Below are positions 12,579 to 43,100 of a stretch of DNA of 64,000 nt, in pieces. The notes below the pieces were generated by a model. The model saw nothing but the letters and a program-made list of their open reading frames with translations. It did no database searches and was not told where the DNA came from. The stretch comes from an uncultured bacterium (GTDB lineage: Bacteria; Fidelibacterota; Marinisomatia; Marinisomatales; J089): the NCBI GenBank assembly GCA_964535735.1, contig CAZHTM010000005.1, forward strand, positions 13,017-77,016, in the 5' to 3' direction. Positions within the stretch are counted from its first letter, which is position 1. Every line of letters begins with the position of its first letter. The translations under genes and the position numbers were made by a program.

Positions 12579-12584
12579 AGACCT

Positions 12585-16354: not shown

Positions 16355-16365
16355 CGTATCACATT

Positions 16366-19439: not shown

Positions 19440-19441
19440 CA

Positions 19442-20671: not shown

Positions 20672-20745
20672 CATTTGCCTGTAACACTGTTTCATTATGA
20701 AACGATGTTCGGTTTTTTCGCAAACTTATCCGACGGAGATAATAT

Positions 20746-20762: not shown

Positions 20763-20822
20763 ATAAGTTAAATTAGAATTAGATAAAATTTGCTAAACAA
20801 GACACAACCAGGAGAATACATA

Positions 20823-21233: not shown

Positions 21234-21250
21234 TTAGTATTTAAATCTAG

Positions 21251-21283
21251 AAAAAAGCCCACAGTGCTGTGGGCTTTTTTTTA
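21251..21283. terminator. Bidirectional rho-independent terminator between convergent pilA and LamG genes
   Basis: AAAAAA-GCCCACA-GTGC-TGTGGGC-TTTTTTTT: a 7-bp GC-rich stem flanked by an A-run and a T-run. Confidence 0.8.
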
Positions 21284-26102: not shown

Positions 26103-26121
26103 ATCGCTTATTTAACTTAAT

Positions 26122-27123
26122 ATGCCACAAAAGCTAAATAGATTTGAACGATATTTAAGTTCCAATTTAGGGTATGGGTCATCTTCTTTTACTTATAAAG
26201 AACTATTATTATTTAATGAAAAACTATTAGCTCAAATCCGGGCAGGCCAAATTCTCTCGGATGCACTTGAAGCTGTATTTGATACCACGGGAAATCGCGT
26301 CCAGAGGATGGTGCTATTCAGTATTACAAACGCCGTAAAAGCCGGTGCCCCTCTCTCCCAGGCTATGCTTACATTTAAAGATATTTTCCCTAATTTTTAT
26401 ATTGCCATGATTATGGCGACGGAAAGAAGTGGAAAAATGATTCAGGGTCTGGAAGCCATGAGCTTACACCTGAAGAACGAAAATAAATTGTTCGATTATT
26501 ACAATGTCTCTATGTTTTACCTGAGACTTCTGATTTATCTATTTTTAGCGGGAATGGTCTATTTATTTGTACGCTTGGGGATTTTAACTCTCTCTCTTGA
26601 CAGCATTCTCTACTCCACCGGCACATTAGCCTTTCTTGCTTTAATAGGTAGTTGGGTTAGTCGTATTCTACAGAAAAATGAAGTACTGAAAGAAAATATA
26701 TTAAACATTATACCATTTGCCGGAAAGATTCATAACTTGGCCTTGATCAGCAGTTATTGTTTTCTTTTTAATGTTTTTCATAGATCAGGTGTCCCCATTT
26801 CCCAGATCAATGGTTTACTTGTCAATTATATTGGCGGAGCTCATTTAGCTCAGGATATCCAACGACTAGGAGAATTGAGCCAGTCCAATCCCGACCCCGA
26901 TCGTTTACCTAAATATTTCACAGTTCTTCCGGATACTCTGGCGCGTGAAATTATTCTCTTTGAACATGGTAAGACTAAGTTCAATACCATTCAAAATTAT
27001 TCTCAGTTTGTCAGCATTGAAATCGATGACATTGCTGCTCAGATTCTTAGCTTGGAAAAACGAATTTTAATGGGCTCTTTAAGTATTGGCGCTTTAGTTA
27101 TTTATTTGTCCTTGATCTATTAA
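26122..27123 (+). CDS. Divergent, short GspF/PilC-family platform-like protein (333 aa)
   Basis: One recognisable T2SSF repeat (LSDALEAVFD...VKAGAPLSQAMLTFKDIFPNFYIAMIMATERSGKMIQGLEAM) plus TM helices. The second repeat is weak. Confidence 0.6.
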   Translation: MPQKLNRFERYLSSNLGYGSSSFTYKELLLFNEKLLAQIRAGQILSDALEAVFDTTGNRVQRMVLFSITNAVKAGAPLSQAMLTFKDIFPNFYIAMIMATERSGKMIQGLEAMSLHLKNENKLFDYYNVSMFYLRLLIYLFLAGMVYLFVRLGILTLSLDSILYSTGTLAFLALIGSWVSRILQKNEVLKENILNIIPFAGKIHNLALISSYCFLFNVFHRSGVPISQINGLLVNYIGGAHLAQDIQRLGELSQSNPDPDRLPKYFTVLPDTLAREIILFEHGKTKFNTIQNYSQFVSIEIDDIAAQILSLEKRILMGSLSIGALVIYLSLIY

Positions 27124-27245
27124 CAATCAAAATGGGGAATAGAAATATTCCCGATTCCATTCTATATTTATTCTTATGAAACTTACTACGGACAGCCGAT
27201 TTCTACTCAAACTCAACCCACTATATTTAGACAAGAGGACTTAAC

Positions 27246-28286
27246 ATGGTCGATATTCTGGAATTGTTGAGATTTACTATTTCTTCCGGCGCTTCAGACC
27301 TCCATTTAAATGCGGGAGCCCCGCCCATGGTGAGAGTTGACGGAATGATGAAAAAAATTGATGTTCCTGATCTGCTACCAGAAGATATCCATCGTCTGAT
27401 TTATGATATCATGACTGACCAAGAACGAAAACGTTTTGAAGAAAATTGGGAATTGGATTTTTCTCGCGAAATCGGGTCCATAGGACGTTTTCGTGTAAAT
27501 GTTTATTACCAGAATGATGGAAAGGCTGCTGTCTTTCGTACCATTCCTACCAAAATTTTAACCATGGAAGAACTCAATTTACCCGATGTGATTAGAAAAT
27601 TATGCAATTTGGAGAAAGGGCTGGTCTTGGTTACCGGTCCAACCGGTAGTGGTAAATCCACAACCCTGGCAGCCATGGTAGACTATATCAATTCCGTTCA
27701 ACGATCCCATATCATTACTATTGAAGATCCGATTGAATTTGTTCATAAAAGTCGGTCTTGTCTAATTAGCCAACGGGAAGTGGGCCGCGATACTAAATCT
27801 TTTTCAAATGCTCTGCGGAGCGCATTGCGGGAAGATCCGGATGTAATCCTGGTAGGTGAAATGCGAGATCTGGAAACAATTGCATTGGCTATCAGCGCTG
27901 CGGAAACCGGACATCTTGTATTTGGAACGCTACACACCAATAGCGTGGCAAAAACCGTGGATCGAATCGTTGATGTATTTCCCACGAATCAGCAAGGACA
28001 AATCCGATCTATGTTTGCCGATTCTATTGAGGGTATCATTTCACAAATACTTTTACGTCGGAAAGAAGGGAAAGGTCGGGTGGCCGCTTTAGAAATATTA
28101 GTGGGAACAAATGCGATTCGAAGTTTGATCCGGGAAAATAAAACATACCAGATTGAATCAGCACTACAGACGGGATCATCCCTGGGTATGTGTACCATGG
28201 AACAAGCCCTTCGAAAGCTACTACAGGATGGAGCTATATCACGTGAAGCGGCCCAAGAAATTATTCCTAAAATGGACGTAACCTGA
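27246..28286 (+). CDS. pilT: PilT retraction ATPase, copy 2 (most canonical)
   Basis: GASDLHLNAGAPPMVRVDG, GPTGSGKST and AIRSLIRE, 346 aa. Confidence 0.9.
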   Translation: MVDILELLRFTISSGASDLHLNAGAPPMVRVDGMMKKIDVPDLLPEDIHRLIYDIMTDQERKRFEENWELDFSREIGSIGRFRVNVYYQNDGKAAVFRTIPTKILTMEELNLPDVIRKLCNLEKGLVLVTGPTGSGKSTTLAAMVDYINSVQRSHIITIEDPIEFVHKSRSCLISQREVGRDTKSFSNALRSALREDPDVILVGEMRDLETIALAISAAETGHLVFGTLHTNSVAKTVDRIVDVFPTNQQGQIRSMFADSIEGIISQILLRRKEGKGRVAALEILVGTNAIRSLIRENKTYQIESALQTGSSLGMCTMEQALRKLLQDGAISREAAQEIIPKMDVT

Positions 28287-28307
28287 TTTCACCCACGGGA
28301 GGTAACC

Positions 28308-29426
28308 ATGAATTTTAGCGATCTGATGAAATTAATGGTGGAAAAAGATGCCACCGACCTTTACATCTCAGTCGGAAATCCACCGATGTATCGAATTGGG
28401 CATGAAATCTATCCTGTAAGTTCTACCAAGCTTACTCCCGCTATGACCGAAAAAATTGCATATTCATTTTTAGATGAAAAACAGGCCAGGGAATTTCAAG
28501 AACATCATGAGATCGATATAGCCTATTCGGTACCGGGAGTTGGTCGGGTGCGGATAAATATTTTCCTGCAACGTGGATCAGTTGGATTAGTATTGAGACA
28601 TATCAAGTCGGAAATCCGCACTCTGGAAGACCTGGGCATGCCGGCTATTATCAGTAAAATTTGTGATACACCTCGTGGACTTGTTCTCATCACCGGTGCC
28701 ACCGGCAGTGGTAAATCCACAACGTTGGCAGCCATGATCGACCACATCAATTCAACCCGTACGGGGCACATCGTTACCATCGAAGACCCCATGGAATTTT
28801 TACATTACCATAAAAAATGTATTGTCACCCAACGTGAAGTGGGAATGGACACCGAATCCTATGCCGTCGCATTGAAAAGTGCCTTACGTCAGACACCGGA
28901 TGTTCTACTGATAGGAGAAATTCGAGATCGGGAGACCATGAAGGCGGCTTTAACTTTTGCAGAAACCGGTCATTTAGTTTTCAGTACCTTACATTCAGTC
29001 AATGCATCACAAACACTTGAACGGATCATGAATTTCTTTCCCGTTGATAATCACCCAATGATTCGTCAACACCTTTCATTAAACTTACGCGCGATCATCT
29101 CTCAGCGACTCGTCACTCGCAAGGATGGTTCCGGGATGGTAGCTGCCCTGGAGATTCTGGTGAATACATCACGAATTAGTGACTTGATGTATAAAGGTCT
29201 CATTGATGAAGTAAAAACAACCATTGGCGCATCCCGTGAGTCGGGAATGCAAACTTTTGATCAACATCTTTTTGACCTTTACAAGGAAGGGATAATTTCC
29301 ATGGATGATGCCCTCACAGCAGCAGACAGCGCCAATGATTTGAAACTACATATGAAAATGGAAGGTGCCGAAGTGGAAGCCGATCGTAATATGATGAATG
29401 AAACCATTACGTTTCGCGATGATTGA
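28308..29426 (+). CDS. pilU: PilU-like PilT-family ATPase
   Basis: DATDLYISVGNPPMYRIG and GATGSGKST. It lacks the AIRNLIRE motif (SRISDLMYKG) and has an extended C-terminus, as in PilU. Confidence 0.8.
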   Translation: MNFSDLMKLMVEKDATDLYISVGNPPMYRIGHEIYPVSSTKLTPAMTEKIAYSFLDEKQAREFQEHHEIDIAYSVPGVGRVRINIFLQRGSVGLVLRHIKSEIRTLEDLGMPAIISKICDTPRGLVLITGATGSGKSTTLAAMIDHINSTRTGHIVTIEDPMEFLHYHKKCIVTQREVGMDTESYAVALKSALRQTPDVLLIGEIRDRETMKAALTFAETGHLVFSTLHSVNASQTLERIMNFFPVDNHPMIRQHLSLNLRAIISQRLVTRKDGSGMVAALEILVNTSRISDLMYKGLIDEVKTTIGASRESGMQTFDQHLFDLYKEGIISMDDALTAADSANDLKLHMKMEGAEVEADRNMMNETITFRDD

Positions 29427-29638
29427 TCATGATTTCGATTATTATTATCGCCGTATTAGTGTTAGTCGTGGGTATGGCCTACTTACTTTTCCCCCAGTCG
29501 CTTTTCAAGTGGAACCAGTGGGCAAACCGGGTCATCTTCAAGGACGATATCTTCATCCGGAAAAACAGGGTTACAGGCGCCGGTCTGATCATAGCGGGTC
29601 TCTGGCTCCTGTGGATTTACTTCCACAGTCTCACCTAA
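29423..29638 (+). CDS. Small 2-TM membrane protein (71 aa), paralog of 36403-36609
   Basis: A hydrophobic hairpin with a conserved loop (FP...WN..ANRVI..DD......R.TGA). I chose it over the overlapping frame 29398-29685. ATG 29429 is an alternative start. Confidence 0.55.
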   Translation: MIMISIIIIAVLVLVVGMAYLLFPQSLFKWNQWANRVIFKDDIFIRKNRVTGAGLIIAGLWLLWIYFHSLT

Positions 29639-29689
29639 ATAACGCTGTGATTTTGGTCACAATACCCCAACCGCAGATAGTATAGGCTT

Positions 29690-30196
29690 ATGATGAAGAA
29701 AACAGGTAATCACGTGCAACAAAGATCATCAAAATCCGGATTCACCTTAATCGAACTAGTTATGGTCATTCTTTTATTAGGAATTTTATCCACTATTGCC
29801 ATTCCCAAAGTAACAGACATTATACAAACTGCCCGATTGAAAGCTACAAAAGGTGAGATGACGGAATTAAAAAAGGCCATTATGGGAGATCCATCTTCTG
29901 TGGCTGGTGGCGTCTTAATTGATAAGGGATTTAATGGCGATATTGGGCATCTTCCCGTAACTTTAGATGATCTTGTGAATCAGGGATCCTATCCCAATTG
30001 GAATCGATTTACCCAATCTGGATGGAACGGACCTTATATTTCTGAAGATTTTTCATCCGACAATGAATGGAAAATAGATGCCTGGGGAAACACATACGAA
30101 ATATTTAGTCCTGCCGCCGGAGATACCAGCCTGCTCAGCTATGGTCCGGATGGCACCAAAGGAACCAGTGATGATCTGAGCCTTCATCTTAAATAA
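29690..30196 (+). CDS. GspG-like major pseudopilin (168 aa)
   Basis: KSG|[22 protein letters not shown] class III signal and C-terminal DAWGNTYEI...SYGPDGTKGTSDD, typical of T2SS GspG. Confidence 0.8.
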   Translation: MMKKTGNHVQQRSSKSGFTLIELVMVILLLGILSTIAIPKVTDIIQTARLKATKGEMTELKKAIMGDPSSVAGGVLIDKGFNGDIGHLPVTLDDLVNQGSYPNWNRFTQSGWNGPYISEDFSSDNEWKIDAWGNTYEIFSPAAGDTSLLSYGPDGTKGTSDDLSLHLK

Positions 30197-30208
30197 AGGG
30201 GTCTCATC

Positions 30209-33046
30209 ATGGAAAAACATCACTTGATAAACACACCCAAAAAAGCATCTGGGTTTACCCTTTTTCAGCTCGTTGCACTGATTGTCGTGCTGGGAATCTT
30301 GGCAGCTACAGCTATCCAGGTAGTGGTGATACTGACCCCGTCAAGTTGGGAAGCCGAAGCATTAGCGGAAATGGAAAAAATACGTTGTGGGATTGTTGGA
30401 TGTACCGAAGGCGACTGCGGCTTTATTGGCGATAATGGAGCCATTCCATCTCAACTACAGGATTTACTGGAGGACCCGGGTTCTGGTCAATATTGTAACT
30501 GGCTAGGCCCCTATTTGGATGTAACCTTCGTTGACAACCCCTATGATTATCTCTATGATCCGTGGGGGAACCCTTATATCTGGGACACACAAAACTTAAC
30601 GCTAACTTCGACCTCTGGAGGAAATGGCGCCGAACCCCTAACCATTTCACTGGCCAATGAAGTTACCGATCTATTAAGTAATACCGTTCAATATCAATTC
30701 ACTGATGCCAATGGTTTGCCATTAGATTCATCATCCATTGATGTCTATGTGAATTACGGTTGTGGAGACATTAAACTTGACTATAGCGCTTCCCTTGGTT
30801 TTTATGGAGAAGGATTTCCAACGTGTGGACTGGAAGTCGTTGTCGTGTCTGGTGTCGATACGCTTCATCCACCTGCTTGTCCTGACCCGCCCTGTGATCC
30901 AGCGCCAATAACTTGTGATTACGGAACGATACAATATTCAGGATCAGCAGCCTTAAGCGGAACCATGAATGACGTCATCTCTTTTCAGGCCAGCGCCACA
31001 GGAGATTGTCAGTTCGATATTAAGAGTTTGTCCTTCGAATGGTCAGGTTCCAACTGGTGTAACCAAACACCTTATTTAGAAACATTTAAAGTAGGTGGTA
31101 GCACTTATTGGGATTATCAAGTCGATAACAACGGCGTTCGCGCTGTGTCTGGTCAAGAGATGGTCTTGAGAAGTACTCTTATTGCAAACCCCGGCACTAC
31201 ATTGAATATTACTGAAGTAAAATATGCCGATGCTCGCACCGGGTCAGCAAATCCCATTCAATTAGATGGGACCACATTCAATTTCTTTCTTTATTCTGAT
31301 TTAGCGCCCACTCAGTTGATTTCTTTCACCGCACCGGGGACTCCCCCGACGGCCGGTTCTTTGATCTATTCGAGTGGGACGCTTGAAACTTCCGGGAGTG
31401 ACCGCCAAAATATTTCCTTCGATATTACTAATCCAGGTGAATGTTGCGTCACAATCAGTGGAATGATCGTTTCTTGGGACACAACATCCACAATTTCCTA
31501 TCTGGAAGAAATTAAAATCGGAGGAACTACGTATTGGAAAGATAAGGAATGCAGAATTGCCTCCGGTCAATATTTAGCATTGGATGATATTGTCACTATT
31601 TGTGATGCCACCAAAACTATAGAATTAAAAAGTTTCACTACCGATCGTGGTTCAGATTGGGGGGACTATTATTCCGATCCCACAAGCACCTCTACAGTAA
31701 GCGGGTCAATTAACATCAATCCTAATAATAGCACATATAATCAATTCTATCTTGTGAAAACTGATGGTAGTCTGATTACCCGGGATGATTTAACCCAATC
31801 GGCTTCTGATTTCCAGGGAAGCGCTATCTGGGTTCATGTTAAACCCAAAGGAAATGGTAACCAGAACGGCCTCACGGTCAATGGATCATCCTATGCCGTG
31901 GATAACGGAAAACAATATGATATTTCTTCCAGCAATATGACCGTGAATCTCTACAACGATAATCGTTCCGGGGGACTGGCATTAGGTCAGTGGTGGATCG
32001 ATATAACCGCCACCGACGCCGTTATCGCTGAAAATGGCCATGGCTATTACTTGGATGATGAATCCAATTCATATTCAGAATACATCCATCGATATGCGTG
32101 TGAAAATCTGGAGGGCGGCGGCGGCGACCATGGGGATCATAATGACCATGGAGATCATGATGATCATGATGATCATGGGGATCATAACGACCATGGAGAT
32201 CACGACGACCACGGTGATCACAATGATCATGGGGATCATAGTGGTAGTTCCGGTTCATATTATTCACCTCCTGATTGTCCTGATGACGACGGAGATGGTA
32301 AAATTACCATAACGCATTATCCTTCCGGGGATACAGACCATCCTCAGGTTATCTGTATTTCAACCGATGCCTGGGACGCACATAAAGCCCATGGTGACGA
32401 GTGCGGAACACCGGCTCAAGAAGATAGCTATGAATGTTCAACAGAGAAAGATCATGTAAGCGGGAACGGAGATAAAGTGGATATGCGGGGACATCAAATT
32501 GAAGTCACCTTCATCGCTACAGATGGTACCCAGTATCCTTTTGTATTCAATACCGAATCCCGGAACGGACCTAATCTTGTTATTTACAATAACAATATCG
32601 ATGTCTCCGGGTCTGGACATTATACTGTGGAATTCGACGTGAAAAACACAGGAGATAGCCCCTTACAAATCAAACAAATAACGGCATCGTGGGATAAATC
32701 CAATGCCTATGCCTCCAAATTCAAAGTTGGTAGTACAACCTACTGGAATGCGGGTAAAGATGAACGGTTATCCAGTGGTGGCGTTTTGGATCTTGATAAT
32801 TATCTATATTTGGAAGCCAATAAACGCGTTACACTGAAGTACTATAAATTCAAAGACAGTCTAACCGGTGGAGACTATACAGACATGCGCGGTGTTGATT
32901 TCACGGTCATTTTTACAGGTGTTGGAGATGATAATGACTATACTCTTTCCTTCACAACACCCGGTACCAGTGGAGATGATCACAACGATCATGGGGACCA
33001 CGATGACCATGGAGACCATGGTGACCACGATGATGATGATCATTAA
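30209..33046 (+). CDS. Giant pseudopilin-like protein P1 (945 aa): prepilin signal with Gln at +5, GspG-like head, three copies of an unnamed beta domain, two Asp-His repeat tracts
   Basis: KKASG|FTLFQLVALIVVLGILAA; GFIGDNGAIPSQLQDL; DPWGNPYIWD; repeat units around aa 241-376, 385-478 and 795-918; DH tracts at aa 640-677 and 923-945. Confidence 0.8.
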   Translation: MEKHHLINTPKKASGFTLFQLVALIVVLGILAATAIQVVVILTPSSWEAEALAEMEKIRCGIVGCTEGDCGFIGDNGAIPSQLQDLLEDPGSGQYCNWLGPYLDVTFVDNPYDYLYDPWGNPYIWDTQNLTLTSTSGGNGAEPLTISLANEVTDLLSNTVQYQFTDANGLPLDSSSIDVYVNYGCGDIKLDYSASLGFYGEGFPTCGLEVVVVSGVDTLHPPACPDPPCDPAPITCDYGTIQYSGSAALSGTMNDVISFQASATGDCQFDIKSLSFEWSGSNWCNQTPYLETFKVGGSTYWDYQVDNNGVRAVSGQEMVLRSTLIANPGTTLNITEVKYADARTGSANPIQLDGTTFNFFLYSDLAPTQLISFTAPGTPPTAGSLIYSSGTLETSGSDRQNISFDITNPGECCVTISGMIVSWDTTSTISYLEEIKIGGTTYWKDKECRIASGQYLALDDIVTICDATKTIELKSFTTDRGSDWGDYYSDPTSTSTVSGSININPNNSTYNQFYLVKTDGSLITRDDLTQSASDFQGSAIWVHVKPKGNGNQNGLTVNGSSYAVDNGKQYDISSSNMTVNLYNDNRSGGLALGQWWIDITATDAVIAENGHGYYLDDESNSYSEYIHRYACENLEGGGGDHGDHNDHGDHDDHDDHGDHNDHGDHDDHGDHNDHGDHSGSSGSYYSPPDCPDDDGDGKITITHYPSGDTDHPQVICISTDAWDAHKAHGDECGTPAQEDSYECSTEKDHVSGNGDKVDMRGHQIEVTFIATDGTQYPFVFNTESRNGPNLVIYNNNIDVSGSGHYTVEFDVKNTGDSPLQIKQITASWDKSNAYASKFKVGSTTYWNAGKDERLSSGGVLDLDNYLYLEANKRVTLKYYKFKDSLTGGDYTDMRGVDFTVIFTGVGDDNDYTLSFTTPGTSGDDHNDHGDHDDHGDHGDHDDDDH
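32126..32239 (+). repeat. In-frame imperfect 9/18-nt tandem repeat encoding (DHx)n: DHGDHNDHGDHDDHDDHGDHNDHGDHDDHGDHNDHGDH
   Basis: 13 consecutive Asp-His dipeptides spaced by G/N/D. The DNA units gaccatggRgatcataaY recur with synonymous wobble differences. Confidence 0.9.
32975..33043 (+). repeat. C-terminal Asp-His tract DDHNDHGDHDDHGDHGDHDDDDH ending P1
   Basis: Read directly from the ORF. It immediately precedes the stop codon at 33044-33046. Confidence 0.9.
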
Positions 33047-33066
33047 ATCCTAATCTATGTATCTTG

Positions 33067-33098
33067 TCCTGGTCGGGGAACATCTTCCTTGACCAGGA
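33067..33098 (+). terminator. Extended hairpin between P1 and P2 (possible attenuator/partial terminator)
   Basis: TCCTGGTC-GG-GGAA-CATC-TTCC-TT-GACCAGGA followed by TTATTCTATTC. It lies in the 63-nt gap before ATG 33110. Confidence 0.35.
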
Positions 33099-33109
33099 TT
33101 ATTCTATTC

Positions 33110-34732
33110 ATGACATCCAAATCACATAGCATCGTGGCCTCCAACATCAAAAAATCCGGTTTTACTCTCATTGAACTTGTGATCGTAATCATTATCATGG
33201 GCATTCTAGCAGGCATTGCCGTGCGCACCACAACCCGGATTGCCCTGAATGCCAAATTCAATGAAACGTATGAAGAAATGCAATTGTTGGTAAAAGCCAT
33301 TATTGGGGATTCCAATATTATTCAGAATGACGTTCGTACCAGCTTCGGTTATGTAGGCGACACTGGCGTGATGCCACCGACACTGGACGACTTAATGTCT
33401 AATGTATCAGGCAAAACAGGTTGGGCCGGGCCGTATATGGACGCGGGTTATACTCAAGATCCTGACTTTTATAAACGGGATGCCTTCGGAAAACAATACC
33501 GATATGTTTTACCCACTGTAGGTACCGAGGCTCCTAAGATTTGGACACCTACGGATGGTGATACAATTACTGTAAAGATTGCCACTAGTTTAAACGCCAT
33601 TTTAAATAATACAATTAAATTGCGATTATACAGCGAAAATGGCGTCGAAATTAACGGGACAAATGGATCAGTGGCAGTTAGCTACAGTGGAGCCTGGCAT
33701 CCCCTGACGTATAGTTCATCAACAGGATTTAAAATTAACACTGTTCCTATCGGATTGCGTCAACTCCGTGCAATTTCCGCGGGAGATACTGTCTATAAGA
33801 CAATTTCAGTAGAAGAGGCAAACGGAACAACGGGAAATACTTTAACAATGACGGTATACCCTGATTATGGTAATTTGACATATGTTTCCGGATCGGCTTC
33901 TATCTCCGGCGCGGGAAATAACCAGGTTTCCTTTACGGTGACTAACACCGGAACGCCTACGTTTGATATTGATAGAATGACTATTACCTGGGAAGCATTA
34001 CCAAACGATTGCTGGAATTGTAAAAAGGCTTACTTGGCCGAAGTCCAGAAAACCTCGACATACTGGAAATGGAATACCAATGGTCGGTCAGCTTTGGTTC
34101 CCAGTGGCGCTCAGATCGTTTTAGATGGTACTATGTCCCTCTATACCGGACCTAATTCCATCGGTCCACTCATATTTTTGGATGGCACCGATGGTACCAC
34201 GGCCAATACTATCAATATGAACGCCACACGTTTTACGATCCGGTTTGAATCATCCACCGCTCCTTCACAGACAATCACCTTTGATAACGCAACAACGTGT
34301 GCTGCACCCAGTCTATCCCAAAATGGAGCCGCCACCCTGATCGACGGAGCGCGTTTATCGGTACCAGTACAAAATCCCGGTGTATTGCCCGTCACGATTA
34401 CATCCATGACCGTATCCACTGATATTACCACATCGACCGCCTATCTGGATCGTATTCGTTTCGATGGCGCAGATGTCTGGCTGGCCAACGTAACCGCCTG
34501 TAGCAATGTGGCTCGTCCCACGGTAGCAAACAACGCTACGGGAACAGCCGATTTTCTCATTTGCACCTATGCCCTCCCGACAATTAACGCCGGATCAACC
34601 GCTACTGTAGAAATACGGCTAAGGAAAGATCCTACTGGAACAACAAATGTTCCTGTTGCTGTCGGTCAAAGTTATATCCTGGTGTTTAATCTCCAGTGTG
34701 GTAGCTCCCAAACGATTGCCTTCACGTTGTAA
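33110..34732 (+). CDS. Giant pseudopilin-like protein P2 (540 aa)
   Basis: KKSG|FTLIELVIVIIIMGILAGIAV; GYVGDTGVMPPTLDDL; DAFGKQYRY; two C-terminal repeat domains with CWNC at 34010-34021. I moved the start from TTG 33089 to ATG 33110. Confidence 0.8.
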   Translation: MTSKSHSIVASNIKKSGFTLIELVIVIIIMGILAGIAVRTTTRIALNAKFNETYEEMQLLVKAIIGDSNIIQNDVRTSFGYVGDTGVMPPTLDDLMSNVSGKTGWAGPYMDAGYTQDPDFYKRDAFGKQYRYVLPTVGTEAPKIWTPTDGDTITVKIATSLNAILNNTIKLRLYSENGVEINGTNGSVAVSYSGAWHPLTYSSSTGFKINTVPIGLRQLRAISAGDTVYKTISVEEANGTTGNTLTMTVYPDYGNLTYVSGSASISGAGNNQVSFTVTNTGTPTFDIDRMTITWEALPNDCWNCKKAYLAEVQKTSTYWKWNTNGRSALVPSGAQIVLDGTMSLYTGPNSIGPLIFLDGTDGTTANTINMNATRFTIRFESSTAPSQTITFDNATTCAAPSLSQNGAATLIDGARLSVPVQNPGVLPVTITSMTVSTDITTSTAYLDRIRFDGADVWLANVTACSNVARPTVANNATGTADFLICTYALPTINAGSTATVEIRLRKDPTGTTNVPVAVGQSYILVFNLQCGSSQTIAFTL

Positions 34733-36345
34733 TGAACACCCGTCGATATTCCCCTGTCCCCGGATTTACTCTGATAGAGCTGGTAATGGTTATCGTAATT
34801 ATGGCCATTGTTAGTGCCGTGGGGATTCGTACGATTGCCCGAGTAAATGCAAACCGGAACTTCAATATTACCATGGAAAACATGCTTAATTTAAAGTATG
34901 CCATCGTAGGTAATCCCAAAATGGTAGAAAACGGTGTCAGGATTGATTACGGTTATGTAGGTGATACAGGCCAACTACCAACCAGTTTGAATGACCTTAT
35001 GACTGACCCCGGCGTTGCCGGTTGGGATGGACCTTATGGGGACTATACCGGAATTCAAGAAGATCCTACTGCCATATTTCGGGATGGTTGGGGAAAGACC
35101 ATCACGTATACTGTACCAAACAACAATACCGATCCCATTACACTGTCCAGTGCCGGAGGAGGATCACCTATTGAATTGATCGTCGCTAACAATAAAAATG
35201 AAATTTTAAACAACACTGTTGCCCTTCGGGTTAGAAATAAAGATGGATATCCGCTCAGAGGTGATGATGCTACTGTCCAAATCCAATACGGTGGCGGCAC
35301 CTGGCAAACCCTATCGTACGCAACAACTTTAGGCTATTATATTGATACCGTTCCGATTGGCATGGCCACCTTACGGTTTATTGTGGCGGGCGATACGACC
35401 CTTCGCCAGCTCAGCGTGGGTCCCAACAATTCCACGACTAGCCCTAACGAAGGATTGGAATACACCGTAAATCCCGTTTTTGGAACACTAAACTACGTGG
35501 CCGGTTCCGCAAGTCTAGGAGGCACCAATAACTCGGAATTAACCTTTACAGTGAATAATTCTGGTAGTACGATTATGGAAATCGACCAAATCAGTGTTGG
35601 TTGGTCGAATTCATCCTGTTGGGAATGCGATTACGCTTATCTGGCGAACATCACGGTTAATGGAACCGATTATTGGCGCTGGAATACAACGAATCGTAAT
35701 GCTTTGGCATCTACTGACGCTCGGTTGGTGTTGGACCAGAAACTCTCCCTTTCATCCGGAAATACAACCATTGGTCCCCTTGCTTTCCAGGATCTGGTAG
35801 ATGGTACCGGTTCGCCCCAACCTATGAATGCGGTCACGTTTCAGATTACGTTTTTATCGGATCTGACGCCGAATCAAATTGTTAGTTTTTCTACGGGAGG
35901 CACCTGTTCGCCGGCAGTCATTTCCTATTCGAATTTATCCAAACCACTGAATTATCGCGTACGGTGTCAGCTGGATAATACGGGGAATGCTAAAGCCACC
36001 ATCACCGGTATGAATATTAAGTGCGATGTGAGTCCTTCACCTTACCTAGATGTTATTTCTTTTGTAGACTTAACAAACATTTACTGGCAAGCCAATCAGT
36101 CCTGGTGTGGTAATCAATCCCGACAATTGGTTGATAATTTGAACGGAGCTGAGATCACATTCTGCAAAACACAACCGCCAGTAACGGTCCCAGGAGGGAG
36201 TTACATATTGTTAAATCGGATGGACTTTTATACGAGTGCTCAAGCGGATGATAACACTAAAGCAGATGTTACCGGTGGAAATTTCACGTTAACACTCCAT
36301 TTCAAATGCGGATCTGATCAAACGATCTCTTTCACCATGCCTTAA
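34732..36345 (+). CDS. Giant pseudopilin-like protein P3 (537 aa)
   Basis: MNTRRYSPVPG|[16 protein letters not shown]; GYVGDTGQLPTSLNDL; DGWGKTITY; CWEC at 35617-35628. The ATG overlaps the P2 stop by 1 nt (TAATG). Confidence 0.8.
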   Translation: MNTRRYSPVPGFTLIELVMVIVIMAIVSAVGIRTIARVNANRNFNITMENMLNLKYAIVGNPKMVENGVRIDYGYVGDTGQLPTSLNDLMTDPGVAGWDGPYGDYTGIQEDPTAIFRDGWGKTITYTVPNNNTDPITLSSAGGGSPIELIVANNKNEILNNTVALRVRNKDGYPLRGDDATVQIQYGGGTWQTLSYATTLGYYIDTVPIGMATLRFIVAGDTTLRQLSVGPNNSTTSPNEGLEYTVNPVFGTLNYVAGSASLGGTNNSELTFTVNNSGSTIMEIDQISVGWSNSSCWECDYAYLANITVNGTDYWRWNTTNRNALASTDARLVLDQKLSLSSGNTTIGPLAFQDLVDGTGSPQPMNAVTFQITFLSDLTPNQIVSFSTGGTCSPAVISYSNLSKPLNYRVRCQLDNTGNAKATITGMNIKCDVSPSPYLDVISFVDLTNIYWQANQSWCGNQSRQLVDNLNGAEITFCKTQPPVTVPGGSYILLNRMDFYTSAQADDNTKADVTGGNFTLTLHFKCGSDQTISFTMP

Positions 36346-36402
36346 TGTTTTCCGTTTTTCCTCTAGTTATTTGTAATATGTTACTTCAAGATACCACACA
36401 TA

Positions 36403-36609
36403 ATGAATCCAATTAATTTCATTTTAATAATCGCTATCCTCGCCCTGGTCTTCGGTCTCTTATTGATGTTTAATCCCGAGTTTGTAAAAGAATTAAATGA
36501 ACTGGGAAATAAGATTATTGCCACCGATGAACAAATGCTGGCACATCGCTACATTACTGGTGCTGTTTTAGTGATCTTGAGTCTGATTCTGATTGTTATT
36601 AGTTGGTGA
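36403..36609 (+). CDS. Small 2-TM membrane protein (68 aa), paralog of 29423-29638
   Basis: MNPINFILIIAILALVFGLLLMFNPEFVKELNELGNKIIATDEQMLAHRYITGAVLVILSLILIVISW aligns with the 71-aa protein at G, P, N, N-[RK]-[VI]-I, D-[DE] and TGA. Confidence 0.55.
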   Translation: MNPINFILIIAILALVFGLLLMFNPEFVKELNELGNKIIATDEQMLAHRYITGAVLVILSLILIVISW

Positions 36610-36638
36610 ACAACAGGAAACGGAAGACCCTGTAATTC

Positions 36639-39080
36639 ATGCCCAGGGGGAACCATCCATCTGCACTAGACTCCTCCCTCACCCAACGTGAAATATATCT
36701 TCCGGTTTTAACCGGATTTCATTTTGGTCTAATCCAAGTATCCAGTTATTTCCTGTTTCAATGTTATTACACAGCCACATTTATGGGGTATTTTTTCTTG
36801 GGCGTGGCTTGGATTGTAGGCGTCTGGTTAAATCTTCGGTTTGGAAAACCATTAACATTACGACATAGTCTCTATTTATCTGCCGTATTCTATCTGCTCC
36901 TAGCTTTGGCTTTGGTTCGGGGAACTCCGAACGGATTTTTCATTCCTATTTACGAATTTCTGATTCTCGGAATAGCCGCACCTGCTGGAGCTCTTTTTCG
37001 GACACGGGCATCCACACAACCCACAGCCCACCTGTTTTTCCATGAAAACAACGGGTTTGTCATGGGATTTGTGGTTAGTCTTCTAGGATTTGTCCATTGG
37101 GGTGTCCGTTCACCGTTTATTCTTCCTGTAATCTCTTTTATTCTAATTCTACTTATATACCGTTATGGTTCTTTAAAATATCCATTAATCGTTCTGGGAA
37201 CAGGAACAATCCTTTTACTTTCCCAAGGTCTCTTTGATATAGCATTTATGATAGGATTTTTTATCTTGATCCTGTTTTTCGCACGCAAATTCACAATCCC
37301 GGTTGTAAATCAGAATCAGGAAATTTCTGCTCCGGCTATTTCTGTTTCGGGAAAAAAAATGATTCTTTTTCTCTCCGGATTTAATTTAATCATACTTCAA
37401 TTTTTTATAACCCGGGAATTTTCAACATTGTTATCCGCTTCTGAATTGTCAATACTCATCGTGGCTACAGCCTATTTCACAGGTTATTCCATCGGCTATC
37501 TCGTGGCTCCTCGTATCCCCGAAAAGTTGATTCCATTTTTAGGGTGGTTCATCCTCTTCCTCCATCTGGATATCTTTCTCTTCCTGCGATATTTTGCCGC
37601 TCTTTTAGTATATCTCGGGGCCGGATGGTGGGTGCTCATGGGACTATTGTTTATAACATCCCTTTTTACCTCAGCATTTTATTCCCTGTTTCTTCCGCGG
37701 TTGACCGATAACCGTACATTACACTTGAAATTAACTTCTACCTATTCACTGGAATTGGCAGGAGCAGTTGTAGGTACAATTTTCTTGGTCATTCACACTC
37801 TTTCGGGAGCCCGGTGGATTCAACCTGTATATTTTTTCATCCTGCTAAGCATCCTTTATCTTCTTCAACCTCGGGGCCGATGGAAGTTCACACCTCTGAT
37901 TGGAGCGTTGGGTATACTCCCTTTTCTGATATTCTATGGCCCGAAATTAAACCAAACTGTCATCCGGGATTATTATGCCCTGCGGGGGTACAGTAATCCC
38001 ACAATTTGCTATCAAACAAATAGCCTATATCATACCATCGAAATTTTAGACACCCACCCGCAGCCGGGCTTCCCTGCCGATGGTCGTTGGTCATTTATTA
38101 ACGGTGTCCTGTACTTTGGGTACCAAACTGACACTTCCGGTGCTTTTATCCAGGAAACAGGATTATCTGAATTCACTTATTTTTTAGCAGAACTCCCTGC
38201 TCGTTACCAGGTCATAAGTACTGGTCGAAAACTCAACATTCTGATTTTAGGATGTGGATCGATGTATTCCATTGGTCGTGTGGGACCTTATGCCGATAAG
38301 ATCCAAATGGTGGAAATTGACCCTGAAATCGTCCGGTCTGCTAAAGCTTGTTGGAGCCAACTGAATCAATATGATCAATGGCCCAATGCTCAAATCATCA
38401 TTGATGACGCTAAGCACTTTATTCGTACCCAAGACACGGTTTACGATTTAATCATCATGGATATTTCAGCACCTTATACTCTGGGAACTTTACTTTTACA
38501 CAATCAGGATTTTTTCCGAATCCTGAAGGATCGACTGGCTCCCGGTGGTTTGTTCGCCGAATCCACGCAAGGACGAGCCGATCCTGACTATCCCGAAAGC
38601 CAGGGGATGAAAATCCTAGCAGGTGTTGTCAATGAATATTCTGAAACTCTGGTACTAAATACCTATGGAAGTGGTCATGGTAACCATGGATTTGTCTATT
38701 CCTCCCAAGATGATTCTATCGATTGGAAACGCATGGATTCACTTCTTATCGCAGATAATATGCGATCCGGTGTTCGACTTGAAACAGACTGGGATACAAA
38801 AGTGGACTGGACCACAATCCGACCGTTTACCTATTCGAACATGGAAACACTTTTATCAGGAAACATCTGGCGCTTGACTGACCGGTTAGAACTGGATCGA
38901 ACATTTCTGGACCTAGACTGGTTACGTCGACGTTGGTCGCGATTAGCTACCTTTCATTTACAATTACCCCAAGAACTCCGTCAGCTTTTCCGGTCCCCGT
39001 GGTTTTGGGTTTGGTTTGCTTCTTTTGGTGTGACGTTTATTTGGTCTTACGGACCTTTTACTTCTAAGCGCCAAAGCTGA
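36639..39080 (+). CDS. Polytopic membrane domain fused to spermidine-synthase-like (class I MTase fold) C-terminal domain (813 aa)
   Basis: About 12 TM helices in the first ~430 aa, then YHTIEILD, ILILGCGSMYSIGRV, VEIDPEIVRSAK, IIIDDAKHFI, YDLIIMDISAP and LKDRLAPGGLF, co-linear with SpeE-family motifs. The glycine-rich loop is GCGSM rather than GGGDG. Start uncertain. Confidence 0.65.
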   Translation: MPRGNHPSALDSSLTQREIYLPVLTGFHFGLIQVSSYFLFQCYYTATFMGYFFLGVAWIVGVWLNLRFGKPLTLRHSLYLSAVFYLLLALALVRGTPNGFFIPIYEFLILGIAAPAGALFRTRASTQPTAHLFFHENNGFVMGFVVSLLGFVHWGVRSPFILPVISFILILLIYRYGSLKYPLIVLGTGTILLLSQGLFDIAFMIGFFILILFFARKFTIPVVNQNQEISAPAISVSGKKMILFLSGFNLIILQFFITREFSTLLSASELSILIVATAYFTGYSIGYLVAPRIPEKLIPFLGWFILFLHLDIFLFLRYFAALLVYLGAGWWVLMGLLFITSLFTSAFYSLFLPRLTDNRTLHLKLTSTYSLELAGAVVGTIFLVIHTLSGARWIQPVYFFILLSILYLLQPRGRWKFTPLIGALGILPFLIFYGPKLNQTVIRDYYALRGYSNPTICYQTNSLYHTIEILDTHPQPGFPADGRWSFINGVLYFGYQTDTSGAFIQETGLSEFTYFLAELPARYQVISTGRKLNILILGCGSMYSIGRVGPYADKIQMVEIDPEIVRSAKACWSQLNQYDQWPNAQIIIDDAKHFIRTQDTVYDLIIMDISAPYTLGTLLLHNQDFFRILKDRLAPGGLFAESTQGRADPDYPESQGMKILAGVVNEYSETLVLNTYGSGHGNHGFVYSSQDDSIDWKRMDSLLIADNMRSGVRLETDWDTKVDWTTIRPFTYSNMETLLSGNIWRLTDRLELDRTFLDLDWLRRRWSRLATFHLQLPQELRQLFRSPWFWVWFASFGVTFIWSYGPFTSKRQS

Positions 39081-40681
39081 AACTTTTTGCATCGCGCGCC
39101 CAAAACTGGACTCGCTTTTACTTTCAAACGTTCAAGAATCGAGAATGGCGGGCCAGGATCATTTGTTAGAAAAAACATCGGAACGCCTCTATCAACCATC
39201 GTTTTTAGTTCCGCCGTAGTTAATGGTGGTTTATAAATGGCCATACTCAGTTGACTTAACAAATACTGATTTCGTAAAACATCATTACTCTTGTCCAGAT
39301 AAGTTATCACTATCGGAGTTGCCGTTGTATAAATCCTAAAATGATTCGCCAAGTGACGACGATCTACTAGTACAATGGCTTTATCAGGCAAAAACGAACG
39401 TAATCCCATGACTAAATTGGGATACGGTGTTCCCCGAAGATAATACCCGCTAAACCCCGTCATCTCTTTACTATGATAACGCCTGAAATTTGTATAAGGT
39501 ATCACTGATTTATAGGCCTGGATATATTGATACCCATTAACAAAAATTAAAAATGTAAATACGGCGCCTAAAGTCAGAATTTTCCGTCGGCTCCCGTCTG
39601 TAAACCAGCCCAAGCCTACCAATACCATCCCGGCGAATATGGTAGGAATCCATTGCTCTGGATCCCAGGGAAGCCAGAAGAAAAAATGAAAAGAAATCAA
39701 TCCTAAATACAGAGTAAAAAATGCGGTAATTCCCGGTCGTTTTTTCCAAGCCTTTTTAATAGTCATAATCATGAATACGGTTCCAAGGACCATTTCTCCC
39801 AACATCCAAGGTCCTTCACCGGTTTCACCGATCAACATACGCCGAAAGCCCGTCCATGCTTCTACAGCCTGGTCAAGAATATGTGGGGTCACTGAAAAAA
39901 ATTCGCCAGTCACATGGTACTCAAAAAGCCATTGGAGTGCCCCCGCAACAGTGGTAATGCCATTGATCCCTACAATCAGAAATCCGAACCAAACCAAACC
40001 CGTCATCAGTGCCGAGACACCGATCAGCAGGAATTGCTTCCATGATAGTTTCCTTTTCAATACATGACCGCCTAAAACAGACACAATGGTTAAGACCATA
40101 ATCCCGTTTTCGAGATGTGCCATAACGGAGAGGGCCAGGGTAAACCCCAATATTCCTTCTGGTCCATAGAATACATAGTGTCGGATATTGGGTAAGCCAT
40201 GTTTTATCCATCCCAGATAAGCAAAGGTGAGGTAAACACAGATCTGTTGGAAAAAGAGCAGAATTTCTTTTTCTTCACCCTGAGTGGCAAACATCCAGCG
40301 ACCATGAAAGATAATCGTTAGGGATGTTAACAGAAATGCTATGCGCTTAAGCTTCAGAATACGGTATAACCCCCAATACATGAGAGCTGAATTCAAAGCG
40401 GCAAAAATAATTTCCCGAATACTCACCACCACATGTGGATCCGTACCCGGAAGCATTAGACTAACCAATCGGGTTAATGGAAGCACCAGTGTATGGGCAA
40501 AAAAGAATATGACAGTAGAGGGCATCGTGGACCAGTCCTGCACAATGGTTGCCGACATAAGGCTGTCCCAACGACGAAATCCCGGCATTGGGAAAATCAA
40601 ATATAGAATCGCTGTACAAAGCGCTAATACGAGAGCCGGGAATCCGGGACTAATATGAATATTCCTTGGTTTCATTTCCAT
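39047..40681 (-). CDS. Polytopic membrane protein (544 aa), GT-C-like glycosyltransferase architecture suspected
   Basis: About 12 hydrophobic helices plus a ~150-aa soluble C-terminus. It is the only minus-strand gene inside the pseudopilin block, and its 3-prime end overlaps 36639-39080 by 34 bp. Confidence 0.45.
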   Translation of the reverse strand: MEMKPRNIHISPGFPALVLALCTAILYLIFPMPGFRRWDSLMSATIVQDWSTMPSTVIFFFAHTLVLPLTRLVSLMLPGTDPHVVVSIREIIFAALNSALMYWGLYRILKLKRIAFLLTSLTIIFHGRWMFATQGEEKEILLFFQQICVYLTFAYLGWIKHGLPNIRHYVFYGPEGILGFTLALSVMAHLENGIMVLTIVSVLGGHVLKRKLSWKQFLLIGVSALMTGLVWFGFLIVGINGITTVAGALQWLFEYHVTGEFFSVTPHILDQAVEAWTGFRRMLIGETGEGPWMLGEMVLGTVFMIMTIKKAWKKRPGITAFFTLYLGLISFHFFFWLPWDPEQWIPTIFAGMVLVGLGWFTDGSRRKILTLGAVFTFLIFVNGYQYIQAYKSVIPYTNFRRYHSKEMTGFSGYYLRGTPYPNLVMGLRSFLPDKAIVLVDRRHLANHFRIYTTATPIVITYLDKSNDVLRNQYLLSQLSMAIYKPPLTTAELKTMVDRGVPMFFLTNDPGPPFSILERLKVKASPVLGARCKKFQLWRLEVKGP

Positions 40682-40799
40682 TTCTCAACTCAAATTAAGT
40701 CATCTATGAACATGTTTAAGCCGAAAAAATATCCTTTGTTTAGCATGACTTGCAGGGTTGCGAAATAATACCGGGTGGTTTAGTTTCTGCAACATTCCC

Positions 40800-42413
40800 A
40801 TGGTTACAATAACAAAATCCCATCGCCATCAATATTCGGGTTTTTCACTCATGGAACTCGTAATGGTCATGATCATTATCGCGATCCTTAGCGGCATTGG
40901 TGCTCGGTCGCTAATGCGTGTTTTTGACAATGCCAATGTGAACGGAACAATTGCTGAAATGCGTATTTTGGCCGAAGGGATCGTTGGAAATCCCGATATT
41001 ATGGAAAATAATATTCGAACCAATTATGGATACGTTGGCGATACGGGTCAACTCCCCCCTACTCTTAGGGATTTGGTATCCAATGAATCCGGTGTCACAG
41101 GATGGGATGGTCCGTATATCGATGTCGGTTTTTCTGATGATCCTGATTATTACCTGACCGATGCCTGGGGTAATAATTATGTGTATGTTGTACCCTCTGA
41201 CCCCACGCAACCTCCAATTATCTACACCCCTGCCGACGGGGATACCATCACTAAAAAAATCGGGAATAGTGTAAATGAACTGCTGAACAACACGATAAAA
41301 ATCAGACTATTAACTTCGAAGGATGTGGAAATAGACGACTCATCGGGTAAGGTGGAAGTGAAATATGCAGGTTCTTACCATACATTGAGTTTTAATTCGA
41401 CCGAAGGCAATTTCACGGGTTCGGTACCGATAGGAATTCATTTAATCCGGGCGATATCTGCCGGCGATACGGTGTATAAATCAGTATCCGTCTCACCGGG
41501 AAATCGAACCACCAACAACAGTATTGAAATCACAGTCTATGCCAGTTATGGTCATGTCACGTATGTTGATGGATCAGCTTCGGTGGAAACAACTACTCAA
41601 AACGAAGTGTACTTTGATGTGCATAATTCAGGAAGCACCACGATGCCCATCAATAAAATGACCCTCACCTGGGAAGCAGCCACCCAAAATTGCTGGAATT
41701 GTGCCACACCCTATTTGGAAGAAGTCAAAGTGGCAGGCACTTCTCACTGGAAATGGGATGTGAATAGTACCGCTTTATCCCCCAGCGATGCGCAAATAGT
41801 TCTGGGTGCCAAAATCCAAATCTATTCCGGCGATATGACCTTGGGTCCCTTTATTTTTAAAGATGCCGCCGATGGGACGGGCGCAGCCGTTGATATGCGG
41901 GGCACGACGTTTACCATTAAACTTCAGTCCCAGATCGCTCCAACTCAAACCATCATATTTACAACTGAAGGAGTGTGTTCTGACCCTAATCTTTCACTCT
42001 CTGGAACCGTCACTAGTGATACACGCAACGTGTATTTTCCTTTAAAAAACACGGGTTTTGTGACCACCGAATTGACCAGTATCCAAGTTAGTACAAATAT
42101 TTCCGCCTCCACCGCCTACCTGGAAACCGTGTTTCTAGCGGGAAACACGGTGTGGCAAGCTGATAATGCCAATTGTGGTTCGGTCCCCCGCCAACGGATA
42201 GATAGCAATATACAGGCGACTATTCCGTTTTCTAGTTGTAGTTATACTAATCCCAGTTGGACTGCGGGCCAGTCACAAACTCTGCGTATGCGGATTTATG
42301 ACGGCACTACTGGAACGGCCGCGGTGACCGGCGGCTTCTCAGGAATTGTCTTTGATATCACCTATAATTATGCCTGTGGTGCCTCACAGACAACATCCAT
42401 TCCGATCCCATAA
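40800..42413 (+). CDS. Giant pseudopilin-like protein P4 (537 aa)
   Basis: MVTITKSHRHQYSG|FSLMELVMVMIIIAIL; GYVGDTGQLPPTLRDL; DAWGNNYVY; CWNC at 41691-41702. It is co-linear with P2 along its full length. I moved the start from 40758 to ATG 40800. Confidence 0.8.
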   Translation: MVTITKSHRHQYSGFSLMELVMVMIIIAILSGIGARSLMRVFDNANVNGTIAEMRILAEGIVGNPDIMENNIRTNYGYVGDTGQLPPTLRDLVSNESGVTGWDGPYIDVGFSDDPDYYLTDAWGNNYVYVVPSDPTQPPIIYTPADGDTITKKIGNSVNELLNNTIKIRLLTSKDVEIDDSSGKVEVKYAGSYHTLSFNSTEGNFTGSVPIGIHLIRAISAGDTVYKSVSVSPGNRTTNNSIEITVYASYGHVTYVDGSASVETTTQNEVYFDVHNSGSTTMPINKMTLTWEAATQNCWNCATPYLEEVKVAGTSHWKWDVNSTALSPSDAQIVLGAKIQIYSGDMTLGPFIFKDAADGTGAAVDMRGTTFTIKLQSQIAPTQTIIFTTEGVCSDPNLSLSGTVTSDTRNVYFPLKNTGFVTTELTSIQVSTNISASTAYLETVFLAGNTVWQADNANCGSVPRQRIDSNIQATIPFSSCSYTNPSWTAGQSQTLRMRIYDGTTGTAAVTGGFSGIVFDITYNYACGASQTTSIPIP

Positions 42414-42756: not shown

Positions 42757-43056
42757 GTGGAAAATGATTATCTAAAAGATCCGGAATTCCAAGAACTTAT
42801 AAGACAATATCTTGAATTTTTAAATAATGCCTTACCCGATGTCAAATCCAATCTCAGCAACAAAAACTTTTTAGAAGTCCAAAAATTTGGTCACAATATG
42901 AAAGGCAGCGGTGGTGGATACGGCCTGGATGAATTCTCAGAGTTTGGCGCTCAAATAGAAAAAGCCGCTATGGTTCAGGATCAACTCACCCTGGACAGCT
43001 TGTTGACTTCTTTTGAGAAAAAACTCAAAGAAACATTTGAGCGTTTCGCCGACTGA
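42757..43056 (+). CDS. Histidine phosphotransfer (Hpt) protein
   Basis: HNMKGSGGGYGL matches the HxxKG Hpt phosphorylation motif, in a 99-aa helical protein. GTG start with an AGAGG RBS. Confidence 0.8.
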   Translation: MENDYLKDPEFQELIRQYLEFLNNALPDVKSNLSNKNFLEVQKFGHNMKGSGGGYGLDEFSEFGAQIEKAAMVQDQLTLDSLLTSFEKKLKETFERFAD

Positions 43057-43100
43057 TAAACTGTTTCGCTAAAACCGACAAAAACAGGAACGGGAATTCC

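Follow-up and report, generated by a model that had tools for sequence, protein, structure and literature searches.

The window analysed here, 64,000 nucleotides from an uncultured bacterium of the Fidelibacterota (Marinimicrobia; contig CAZHTM010000005.1, positions 13,017 to 77,016), carries a block of genes for one small and four very large pilins, termed the G-like pilin and P1 to P4, downstream of a type IV pilus locus. This block is probably the half of the locus that supplies one pilus with its minor tip and adhesion pilins, its retraction ATPases and its candidate modification enzymes, and not a separate machine. The reading is favoured because the window holds a single PilD, PilB, PilC and secretin, because the upstream machine would otherwise be without minor pilins, because the linkage of the block to pilA persists from lineage to lineage, because its five pilins have fixed orthology, and because P1, the largest of them, lacks the glutamate at mature position 5 (Glu5), as GspK and PilX do.

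Under this reading, the five GspG-headed prepilins would be cleaved by the single PilD of the locus and would then form, on the PilC/PilB platform, a priming complex that remains at the tip of the pilus. P1, without Glu5, would sit at the apex with P4, P2 and P3 beneath it, and the small G-like pilin would join the large pilins to the PilA fibre. The tandem beta-sandwich tails of the large pilins could reach out from the tip and, as adhesins, bind particles or polymers. The fibre would be retracted by the PilT and PilU of the same array, and the Wzy_C/TPR protein and other membrane proteins may modify the pilins.

A preliminary description of this DNA had started the block at 26122. Its open reading frame (ORF) positions for 26122-42413 are correct, and the co-directional array, with short gaps, runs from 22331 to 39080, its true start being 22331. 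The genes are listed below (window coordinates, strand, product; aa, amino acids; TM, transmembrane).

22331-24010, +, polytopic membrane protein, 559 aa, first gene of the co-directional array
24003-26102, +, Wzy_C and TPR protein, 699 aa (Pfam Wzy_C, 70.4 bits against a cut-off of 31.7)
26122-27123, +, compact GspF/PilC-like protein, 333 aa (Pfam T2SSF, one repeat)
27246-28286, +, PilT retraction ATPase, 346 aa (TIGR01420, 498 bits against a cut-off of 319)
28308-29426, +, PilU-type ATPase, the second PilT-family member, 372 aa (TIGR01420, 455 bits, same cut-off of 319)
29429-29638, +, 2-TM miniprotein 1, about 68-69 aa, paralogue of miniprotein 2
29690-30196, +, G-like pilin, 168 aa, with Glu5
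30209-33046, +, P1, modular pilin, 945 aa, class III signal with Gln at +5 and GspG-type head
33110-34732, +, P2, modular pilin, 540 aa from ATG (547 aa if the ORF is counted from TTG at 33089), orthology group b
34732-36345, +, P3, modular pilin, 537 aa, orthology group c
36403-36609, +, 2-TM miniprotein 2, 68 aa (its orthologues weakly match DUF6199)
36639-39080, +, polytopic membrane protein with a spermidine-synthase-like domain, 813 aa (Pfam Spermine_synth, 43 bits)
39047-40681, -, polytopic membrane protein, 544 aa, a conserved neighbour on the opposite strand
40800-42413, +, P4, modular pilin, 537 aa from ATG, orthology group a

Five GspG-headed pilins and their tails

Exactly six class III signals were found in a six-frame regular-expression scan of the 64 kb, those of PilA and of the five block pilins, in agreement with the earlier assignment of such a signal to all five. 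The leaders measure 17, 15, 17, 11 and 14 aa against 7 aa for PilA (from the ATG at 20823), which matches the range of 11-17 aa first reported. In the six-frame translation, each of the five proteins contains a single copy of the head motif G[FY]xGDxGxxPxxLxDL, and these five copies are the only ones. A second motif ascribed to all five, D[APG][WF]G..Y, is present in four of them and not in P3, which has DGWGKTITY. With profile hidden Markov models (HMMs), N_methyl scores above its cut-off for the G-like pilin (27.9 bits), P2 (30.8) and P4 (22.9); P3 reaches 19.9 bits, under the Pfam cut-off of 21.2, and 23.0 bits with TIGR02532 against a cut-off of 16.3. The signal of P1 was matched as a motif, GFTLFQLV, without any pilin HMM match.

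In Pfam and NCBIfam, the globular parts of all five heads match GspG-type models only. The G-like pilin scores 30.2 bits with Pfam T2SSG (cut-off 21) and P4 lies just under at 20.2. With the GspG equivalog TIGR01710, the five pilins score 51, 22, 23, 17 and 24 bits, all far under the cut-off of 88.85. The five heads are GspG-like, yet none is a GspG equivalog. At the level of sequence, signal and head matches together argue that the five proteins are genuine GspG-headed prepilins, as they had been taken to be. The JGI name of the G-like pilin is 'general secretion pathway protein G'. Further, mature position 5 is Gln in P1 and all its homologues (GFTLFQLV) and Glu in all the other pilins; GspK and PilX, proposed as ultimate tip subunits, are likewise without Glu5 (PMC7541494).

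The presence of four unusually large paralogues is borne out: full-length identity among P2, P3 and P4 is 38-46%, and P1 shares with them the first ~420 residues of the architecture. In the AlphaFold2 model of P3 (pLDDT 86), a pilin module (residues 1-140), in which a small GspG-like head is joined to a long alpha-1 helix, is followed by an Ig-like domain (145-232) and two beta-sandwiches (240-388 and 395-537). These sandwiches, D2 and D3, are homologues of each other (99.5% in hhalign, E 7e-23). The model of P1 (pLDDT 71) has the pilin module, the Ig-like domain and three copies of the ~140-aa beta-sandwich. The beta domains after the pilin module thus number three in P3 and at least five in P1. 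As modelled, P3 and P1 are modular pilins in the sense of Raynaud et al. 2021, with a pilin module and C-terminal folded modules.

Within the second sandwich of P1 there are insertions, namely an additional beta domain, a disordered H/D-rich run and a conserved Cys/His mini-domain, and the C-terminus is another H/D-rich tail (H/D-rich runs and mini-domain at ~610-760 and 921-945). The low-complexity runs (GDHNDHGDHDDH...) vary among orthologues; the mini-domain, CPDDDGDGKITITHYP...ICIS..AWDAHKAHGDECG, is conserved as an insertion in the second sandwich. Metal binding by the runs and the mini-domain is possible. A His-Xaa-Ser repeat model was rejected for the runs as a low-complexity match only. 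Distant P1 orthologues carry an additional C-terminal DUF7467.

The C-terminal regions had been said to belong to no family that could be named, and this holds in Pfam, NCBIfam and PDB sequences. A full-length family profile against PDB sequences recovered pilin N-terminal helices only, and Foldseek against the PDB gave just generic multi-Ig strings (integrin legs, macroglobulin domains, S-layers and Gram-positive pilins). The nearest structures to the modelled tails are adhesin- or stalk-like Ig strings, and the tails look like adhesin stalks.

The ~140-aa beta-sandwich belongs to a rare unnamed family whose members are borne by pilin-like proteins of bacterial, Tad-type and archaeal kinds. 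When 1.84 billion representatives were searched exhaustively with an HMM, 131 clusters passed E ≤ 1e-3 and 35 passed E ≤ 1e-10. About half of the clusters have recognisable class III-type N-termini, and many others are fragments; the fused N-termini include archaeal-style 'DRAQSVQVGAVILF' and TadE-like leaders. Among 74 representatives scanned with Pfam, the partners were N_methyl (26), T2SSG (10), TadE (3), PilX_N (3), Arch_flagellin (2) and archaeal Pilin_N (1), and no Pfam family covered the sandwich itself. P0072, P0078, P0120, P0129, P0142 and P0152 carry the sandwich C-terminally on archaeal-type class III signals (…DRAQSVQVGAVILFGF…) or on TadE-like proteins. Arch_flagellin (matching three of the eight window copies, best 7e-4) and DUF1573 were rejected as identities of the domain, both being under gathering scores. 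The top PDB sequence matches of the domain profile are two CBM3 structures at E 0.07-0.1, which is not significant. The likeness to CBM3 lies in a ~140-150-aa beta-sandwich with a strand pair of the 'xNtGxxxxxIxxixixw' type, and the match is sub-threshold. This similarity, together with the ecology of the group, suggests that the tails could bind polysaccharide or particulate matter.

Conservation of the block and its linkage to pilA

Only 27 homologues of P3 were found in 5.8 billion clusters, and all those with a named source are metagenome-assembled genomes (MAGs) of Fidelibacterota, Neomarinimicrobiota or the FCB group; P1 has seven homologues. The block recurs on at least six Marinimicrobia contigs (L021, L022, L001/L024, L003/L004, L023 and L025/L026) in a shared order: GspF-like protein, PilT, PilU, miniprotein, G-like pilin, giant pilin, three pilins of ~540 aa, miniprotein and membrane enzymes. 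In L001, L003, L004, L022 and L023 the block itself is seen. Wherever upstream DNA exists (L021, L024 and L025), it lies directly downstream of the pilA, LamG and Wzy_C/TPR genes. L024, at ~50% identity, has the full order from pilA through LamG, a membrane/GT-C gene and Wzy_C to the block, the miniprotein and the membrane enzymes. L025, a contig identical for P1, has the portion from pilA to P3 in the same order. L021, a relative at 72-79%, keeps this order to the limit of the locus (second ~540-aa pilin, miniprotein 2 and the first part of the Spermine_synth gene). In L024, the position held in the window by the gene of the 559-aa membrane protein, between LamG and Wzy_C, is occupied by a minus-strand gene for a 548-aa protein with PMT_2 (a GT-C glycosyltransferase) and TPR. 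A literature search on pili or pilins in Marinimicrobia or Fidelibacter gave nothing specific.

P2, P3 and P4 form three clean one-to-one orthologue groups older than the split of these lineages, and the complete arrays (window, L001/L024, L003/L004 and L023) show no lineage-specific gain, loss or recent duplication of P1 to P4. Such ancient one-to-one groups point to fixed, non-redundant roles, as in a heteromeric complex. The P4 orthologue elsewhere sits immediately after the giant pilin and has moved downstream in the present lineage. The block PilT is 80% identical to its L024 orthologue. The best-conserved pilin of the locus is the G-like protein, at 68% against 59% for PilA.

Two paralogous 2-TM miniproteins of ~68 aa (29429-29638 and 36403-36609) flank the pilin array. 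Both have conserved counterparts in L001, L003, L021, L022 and L023, in which the positions occupied by G, P, N, I, D and G do not vary; for miniprotein 1 in L025/L026, gene callers chose a different, non-conserved 88-aa frame.

Homologues of the pilins were not commonly found away from pilus genes, which supports the preliminary description on this point. The distant relatives in L002 form a stand-alone four-pilin operon (253, 414, 384 and 245 aa). In L005, a 'Proteobacteria bacterium' MAG from another phylum, a complete filament operon of the ordinary kind has a 268-aa relative as its second pilin. That operon (5103-13075) encodes a GspG-like pilin, an ATPase, GspF, the 268-aa pilin, PilM/N-like and PilO-like proteins and a secretin, and the 268-aa pilin has the head motifs FGYVGEYGQLPTDLSEL and DAWGNNFIY and a C-terminal extension. 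The pilin family appears consistently to be one of filament subunits. A family-alignment scan of the genome collection, dominated by the generic pilin-helix pattern, gave among the matches listed head-module matches in other phyla only and no Marinimicrobia loci.

One pilus or two

Upstream of the block lies one complete machine for a retractile type IV pilus (6185-21233), with the following components.

within 6185-21233, ExeA/MshM-like AAA ATPase, PilM-PilN fusion and PilO
within 6185-21233, small protein with a weak, under-cut-off T2SSB (GspB) match
11211-12578, +, the only secretin
12585-13691, +, third PilT, 56% identical to the block PilT
within 6185-21233, LysM protein and response regulator
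15566-16354, +, PilD, the only prepilin peptidase found in the window
16366-18018, +, PilB with an N-terminal MshEN domain that binds cyclic di-GMP (c-di-GMP) (NF053729, 60.7 bits against 38)
within 11211-20671, +, sigma-54 activator
19442-20671, +, PilC, the only full one
20823-21233, +, PilA major pilin, 136 aa from ATG, with a strong 16-bp terminator at 21248-21283

According to the six-frame signal scan, this machine has PilA and no minor pilins of its own. Its secretin, PilD, PilB and PilC would have to serve the block pilins as well. The scans for minor pilins and secretion genes covered the window, namely its ORFs from 6185 onwards other than those at 48283-49125 and 63209-63913. Among the scanned ORFs, there are no core minor pilins of type IVa pili (T4aP) and no PilY1, and GspH matches cover the N-terminal helix only. 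No extension ATPase, secretin, PilMNO or prepilin peptidase was found in the block or elsewhere in the scanned window outside the upstream machine, and the remaining scanned ORFs contain no pilus or secretion genes.

The preliminary description had presented the block as a separate accessory-filament system. This is not supported, given the conserved position after pilA and the sole PilB, PilC, PilD and secretin, both in a close lineage and in one at ~50% identity. The underlying observation stands: the genes of the block are conserved as a unit, in which a divergent platform-like protein is accompanied by ATPases of the retraction type only.

A second filament or pseudopilus is nevertheless the strongest competitor, though we consider it unlikely. 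It would have the G-like pilin as major subunit on the GspF-like platform, with P1 to P4 as its cap and with PilB, PilD and secretin borrowed, and would serve as an adhesive fibre or a secretion piston. The composition of the block, one platform, one GspG-like pilin and four more pilins of which one lacks Glu5, mirrors GspF, GspG and GspH-K. The platform paralogue is lineage-specific, constant in length and always in the same position, and the G-like pilin is more conserved than PilA. Against this, neither the window block nor the related loci hold an extension ATPase, alignment complex, secretin or peptidase of their own, and the block ATPases are of the retraction type only; to our knowledge, operons of type II secretion systems (T2SS) do not include such ATPases. 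The block is, moreover, always physically joined to pilA, and relatives of its pilins form bare minor-pilin operons or provide the second pilin of an ordinary machine. Nor does the block qualify as a T2SS, having no match to GspE, D, C, L, M, H, I, J or K and ATPases of the PilT family.

The GspF-like protein is the oddest component. Its 333 aa score 52 bits with T2SSF (8e-14) over one clear repeat and are without the N-terminal ~70 aa of GspF and PilC. By eye, there are a second, degenerate repeat and three TM segments, and the protein is 27-32% identical to both repeats of the locus PilC. It falls short of a platform protein, which has two T2SSF repeats and ~400 aa, and its equivalog scores are far under the cut-offs. 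There are only seven close relatives, of 319-337 aa, and both source-named ones (P0160 and the contig-mates of P0156) are from Marinimicrobia/FCB.

Several points weigh against assigning the block to the tip of the PilA pilus. The conserved truncated GspF-like protein is left unexplained by the tip model. None of the five pilins matches GspH/I/J/K, FimU/PilV/W/X or PilY1 in Pfam or NCBIfam, and a canonical set could lie in the genome outside the window. We know of no structural precedent for four bulky subunits at one tip. Finally, the support for a ligand is the sub-threshold CBM3 similarity (E 0.07-0.1) only.

P1 to P4 could instead be a repertoire of alternative tip adhesins on the PilA pilus, used singly or according to condition for different substrates, which we regard as improbable. 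The four paralogues do share the same architecture, and Myxococcus, with its multiple PilY1/minor-pilin sets, offers a precedent (PMC7541494). Differential expression could be permitted by the separate position of P4 and by a 15-bp stem-loop with a T-rich tract (33066-33099) between P1 and P2, which may act as an internal attenuator of the pilin array. However, one-to-one retention of all four in complete arrays is typical of obligate partners, and Glu5 is missing in P1 only.

Very improbably, the large proteins are not filament subunits at all but surface proteins, such as substrates or envelope proteins, that are anchored in the inner membrane or released and only use a pilin-type signal. 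P1 is indeed recognised as a pilin by a motif and not by an HMM, and bulky C-termini might be expected to have difficulty passing the secretin, but the heads are full GspG-type globular modules beyond the signals, the linkage with PilT/PilU and pilA is conserved, and the same beta-sandwich is found elsewhere on pilin, TadE and archaeal pilin N-termini.

Known systems, modification and regulation

The size class of these pilins had been thought undescribed, which is not the case: modular pilins are known from more than 1,200 proteins in 264 architectures, reach 860 aa and are established as being presented at pilus tips (PMC8179133). As in the modular pilins of Streptococcus sanguinis (PilB/PilC; Raynaud et al. 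2021, PMC8179133), a class III signal and a small pilin module precede bulky C-terminal modules in the block proteins; a tip site and an adhesion role have been proposed, and several can occur per locus. The differences are that the extra modules here are tandem beta-sandwiches without a Pfam or NCBIfam signature, that four paralogues and a small one have the same GspG-type head, that the host is a diderm of the FCB group, and that P1, at 945 aa, exceeds the 860-aa extreme of that survey (PMC8179133).

CofB, ComZ and GspK are further examples of large pilins (PMC8179133), and the added modules of P1 and P3, like those of CofB and ComZ, are not a named functional domain. CofB/TcpB of type IVb (T4b) pili, ComZ of Thermus and TadG/CpaL of Tad pili also have a single pilin-like N-terminus followed by beta-rich domains, and they too sit at the tip and take part in initiation (PMC8179133). 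The block proteins show no sequence or specific fold match to them, one such subunit is found there against four here, and no T4b or Tad machinery is present at the block. A fragment of P3 bears the JGI label 'TadG'.

Large tip subunits of the TadG/CpaL type and the licensing complex of the I, J and K subunits have both been described. The block resembles the T2SS set GspG with GspH/I/J/K and the T4aP set FimU/PilV/W/X (with PilY1) in having a small GspG-like pilin and four others, the largest without Glu5, encoded beside a GspF-type gene, which presumably prime and cap the fibre. In contrast to these priming complexes, its heads are all GspG-derived paralogues instead of four distinct families, without an HMM match to GspH-K, PilV/W/X or PilY1; its pilins are 3-5 times larger; and PilT/PilU stand in place of GspE.

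What is new is the set of four ancient giant paralogues and a small one, all GspG-headed and without an HMM match to the canonical initiator families, together with an unnamed repeated domain common to archaeal and Tad-type subunits, a dedicated mini-platform with PilT/PilU, and two 2-TM miniproteins flanking the array. A more far-reaching proposal, to which we give little credence, is a non-canonical initiation or tip complex made only of GspG paralogues, one small and four giant, that would replace GspH-K or PilVWX-PilY1, with a dedicated mini-platform coupled to PilT/PilU and with the beta-sandwich as a possibly CBM3-like, filament-borne binding domain. Two questions of pilus biology follow: can a tip or priming complex be built from paralogues of the single GspG-type fold and not from an I/J/K-type trio, and what is the task of a truncated PilC-like protein that is always encoded with PilT and PilU? 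Marinimicrobia are abundant and almost all uncultured, with particulate organic matter as their presumed source of living. A five-pilin tip with four beta-sandwich strings, if true, would be a concrete molecular candidate for their attachment to particles or polymers.

The Wzy_C/TPR protein, with an O-antigen ligase or PglL-TfpO-type fold, is a candidate pilin O-oligosaccharyltransferase. Its gene lies 2.8 kb downstream of pilA and holds the same position in L021, L022, L024 and L025. There are precedents for pilin-adjacent Wzy_C enzymes acting as pilin O-oligosaccharyltransferases (PMC3643930, PMC9829042). The spermidine-synthase-like domain of the 813-aa protein is a class I S-adenosylmethionine-dependent transferase fold, and the gene is kept alongside the pilin array in L001, L003, L004, L021, L022 and L023; modification of pilins or of the envelope is a candidate role. 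Neither the 559-aa nor the 544-aa membrane protein matched a family (Pfam and NCBIfam for the latter), and PDB sequence searches were also empty for both. Counterparts of the 544-aa protein, of 532-571 aa, occur in L001, L003, L004 and L023.

Around the pilus genes, a LamG/concanavalin-like protein is encoded directly after pilA (21323-22162, -), in the same position as in L021, L024 and L025. The PilM-PilN fusion (7062-10136, 1024 aa) has a ~470-aa N-terminal extension without a domain match and resembles the NCBIfam Amuc_1101-family PilM-like model at 129 bits, under its cut-off. Further downstream, 52700-60053 encodes a hybrid kinase of 1877 aa, which contains many PAS/GAF domains, and a pair of small multihaem cytochromes (58674-59285 and 59391-60053), with no evident tie to the pilus block.

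A sigma-54-like -24/-12 element, TGGCAC-N5-TTGAG, lies at 20747-20762, just upstream of pilA and downstream of the sigma-54 activator gene. The motif is not enriched in the window (26 matches against 23.8 expected from shuffles), and only the pilA site is positionally plausible; the motif search found no site before the G-like gene. Sigma-70 and terminator scans of the window were overall not above chance. Downstream of P4, genes for an Hpt protein and a response-regulator diguanylate cyclase (42757-44003, +) follow, as they also follow the module in L023 (19828-21040). The MshEN domain of PilB and this cyclase suggest that extension may be under c-di-GMP control, as in MSHA pili.

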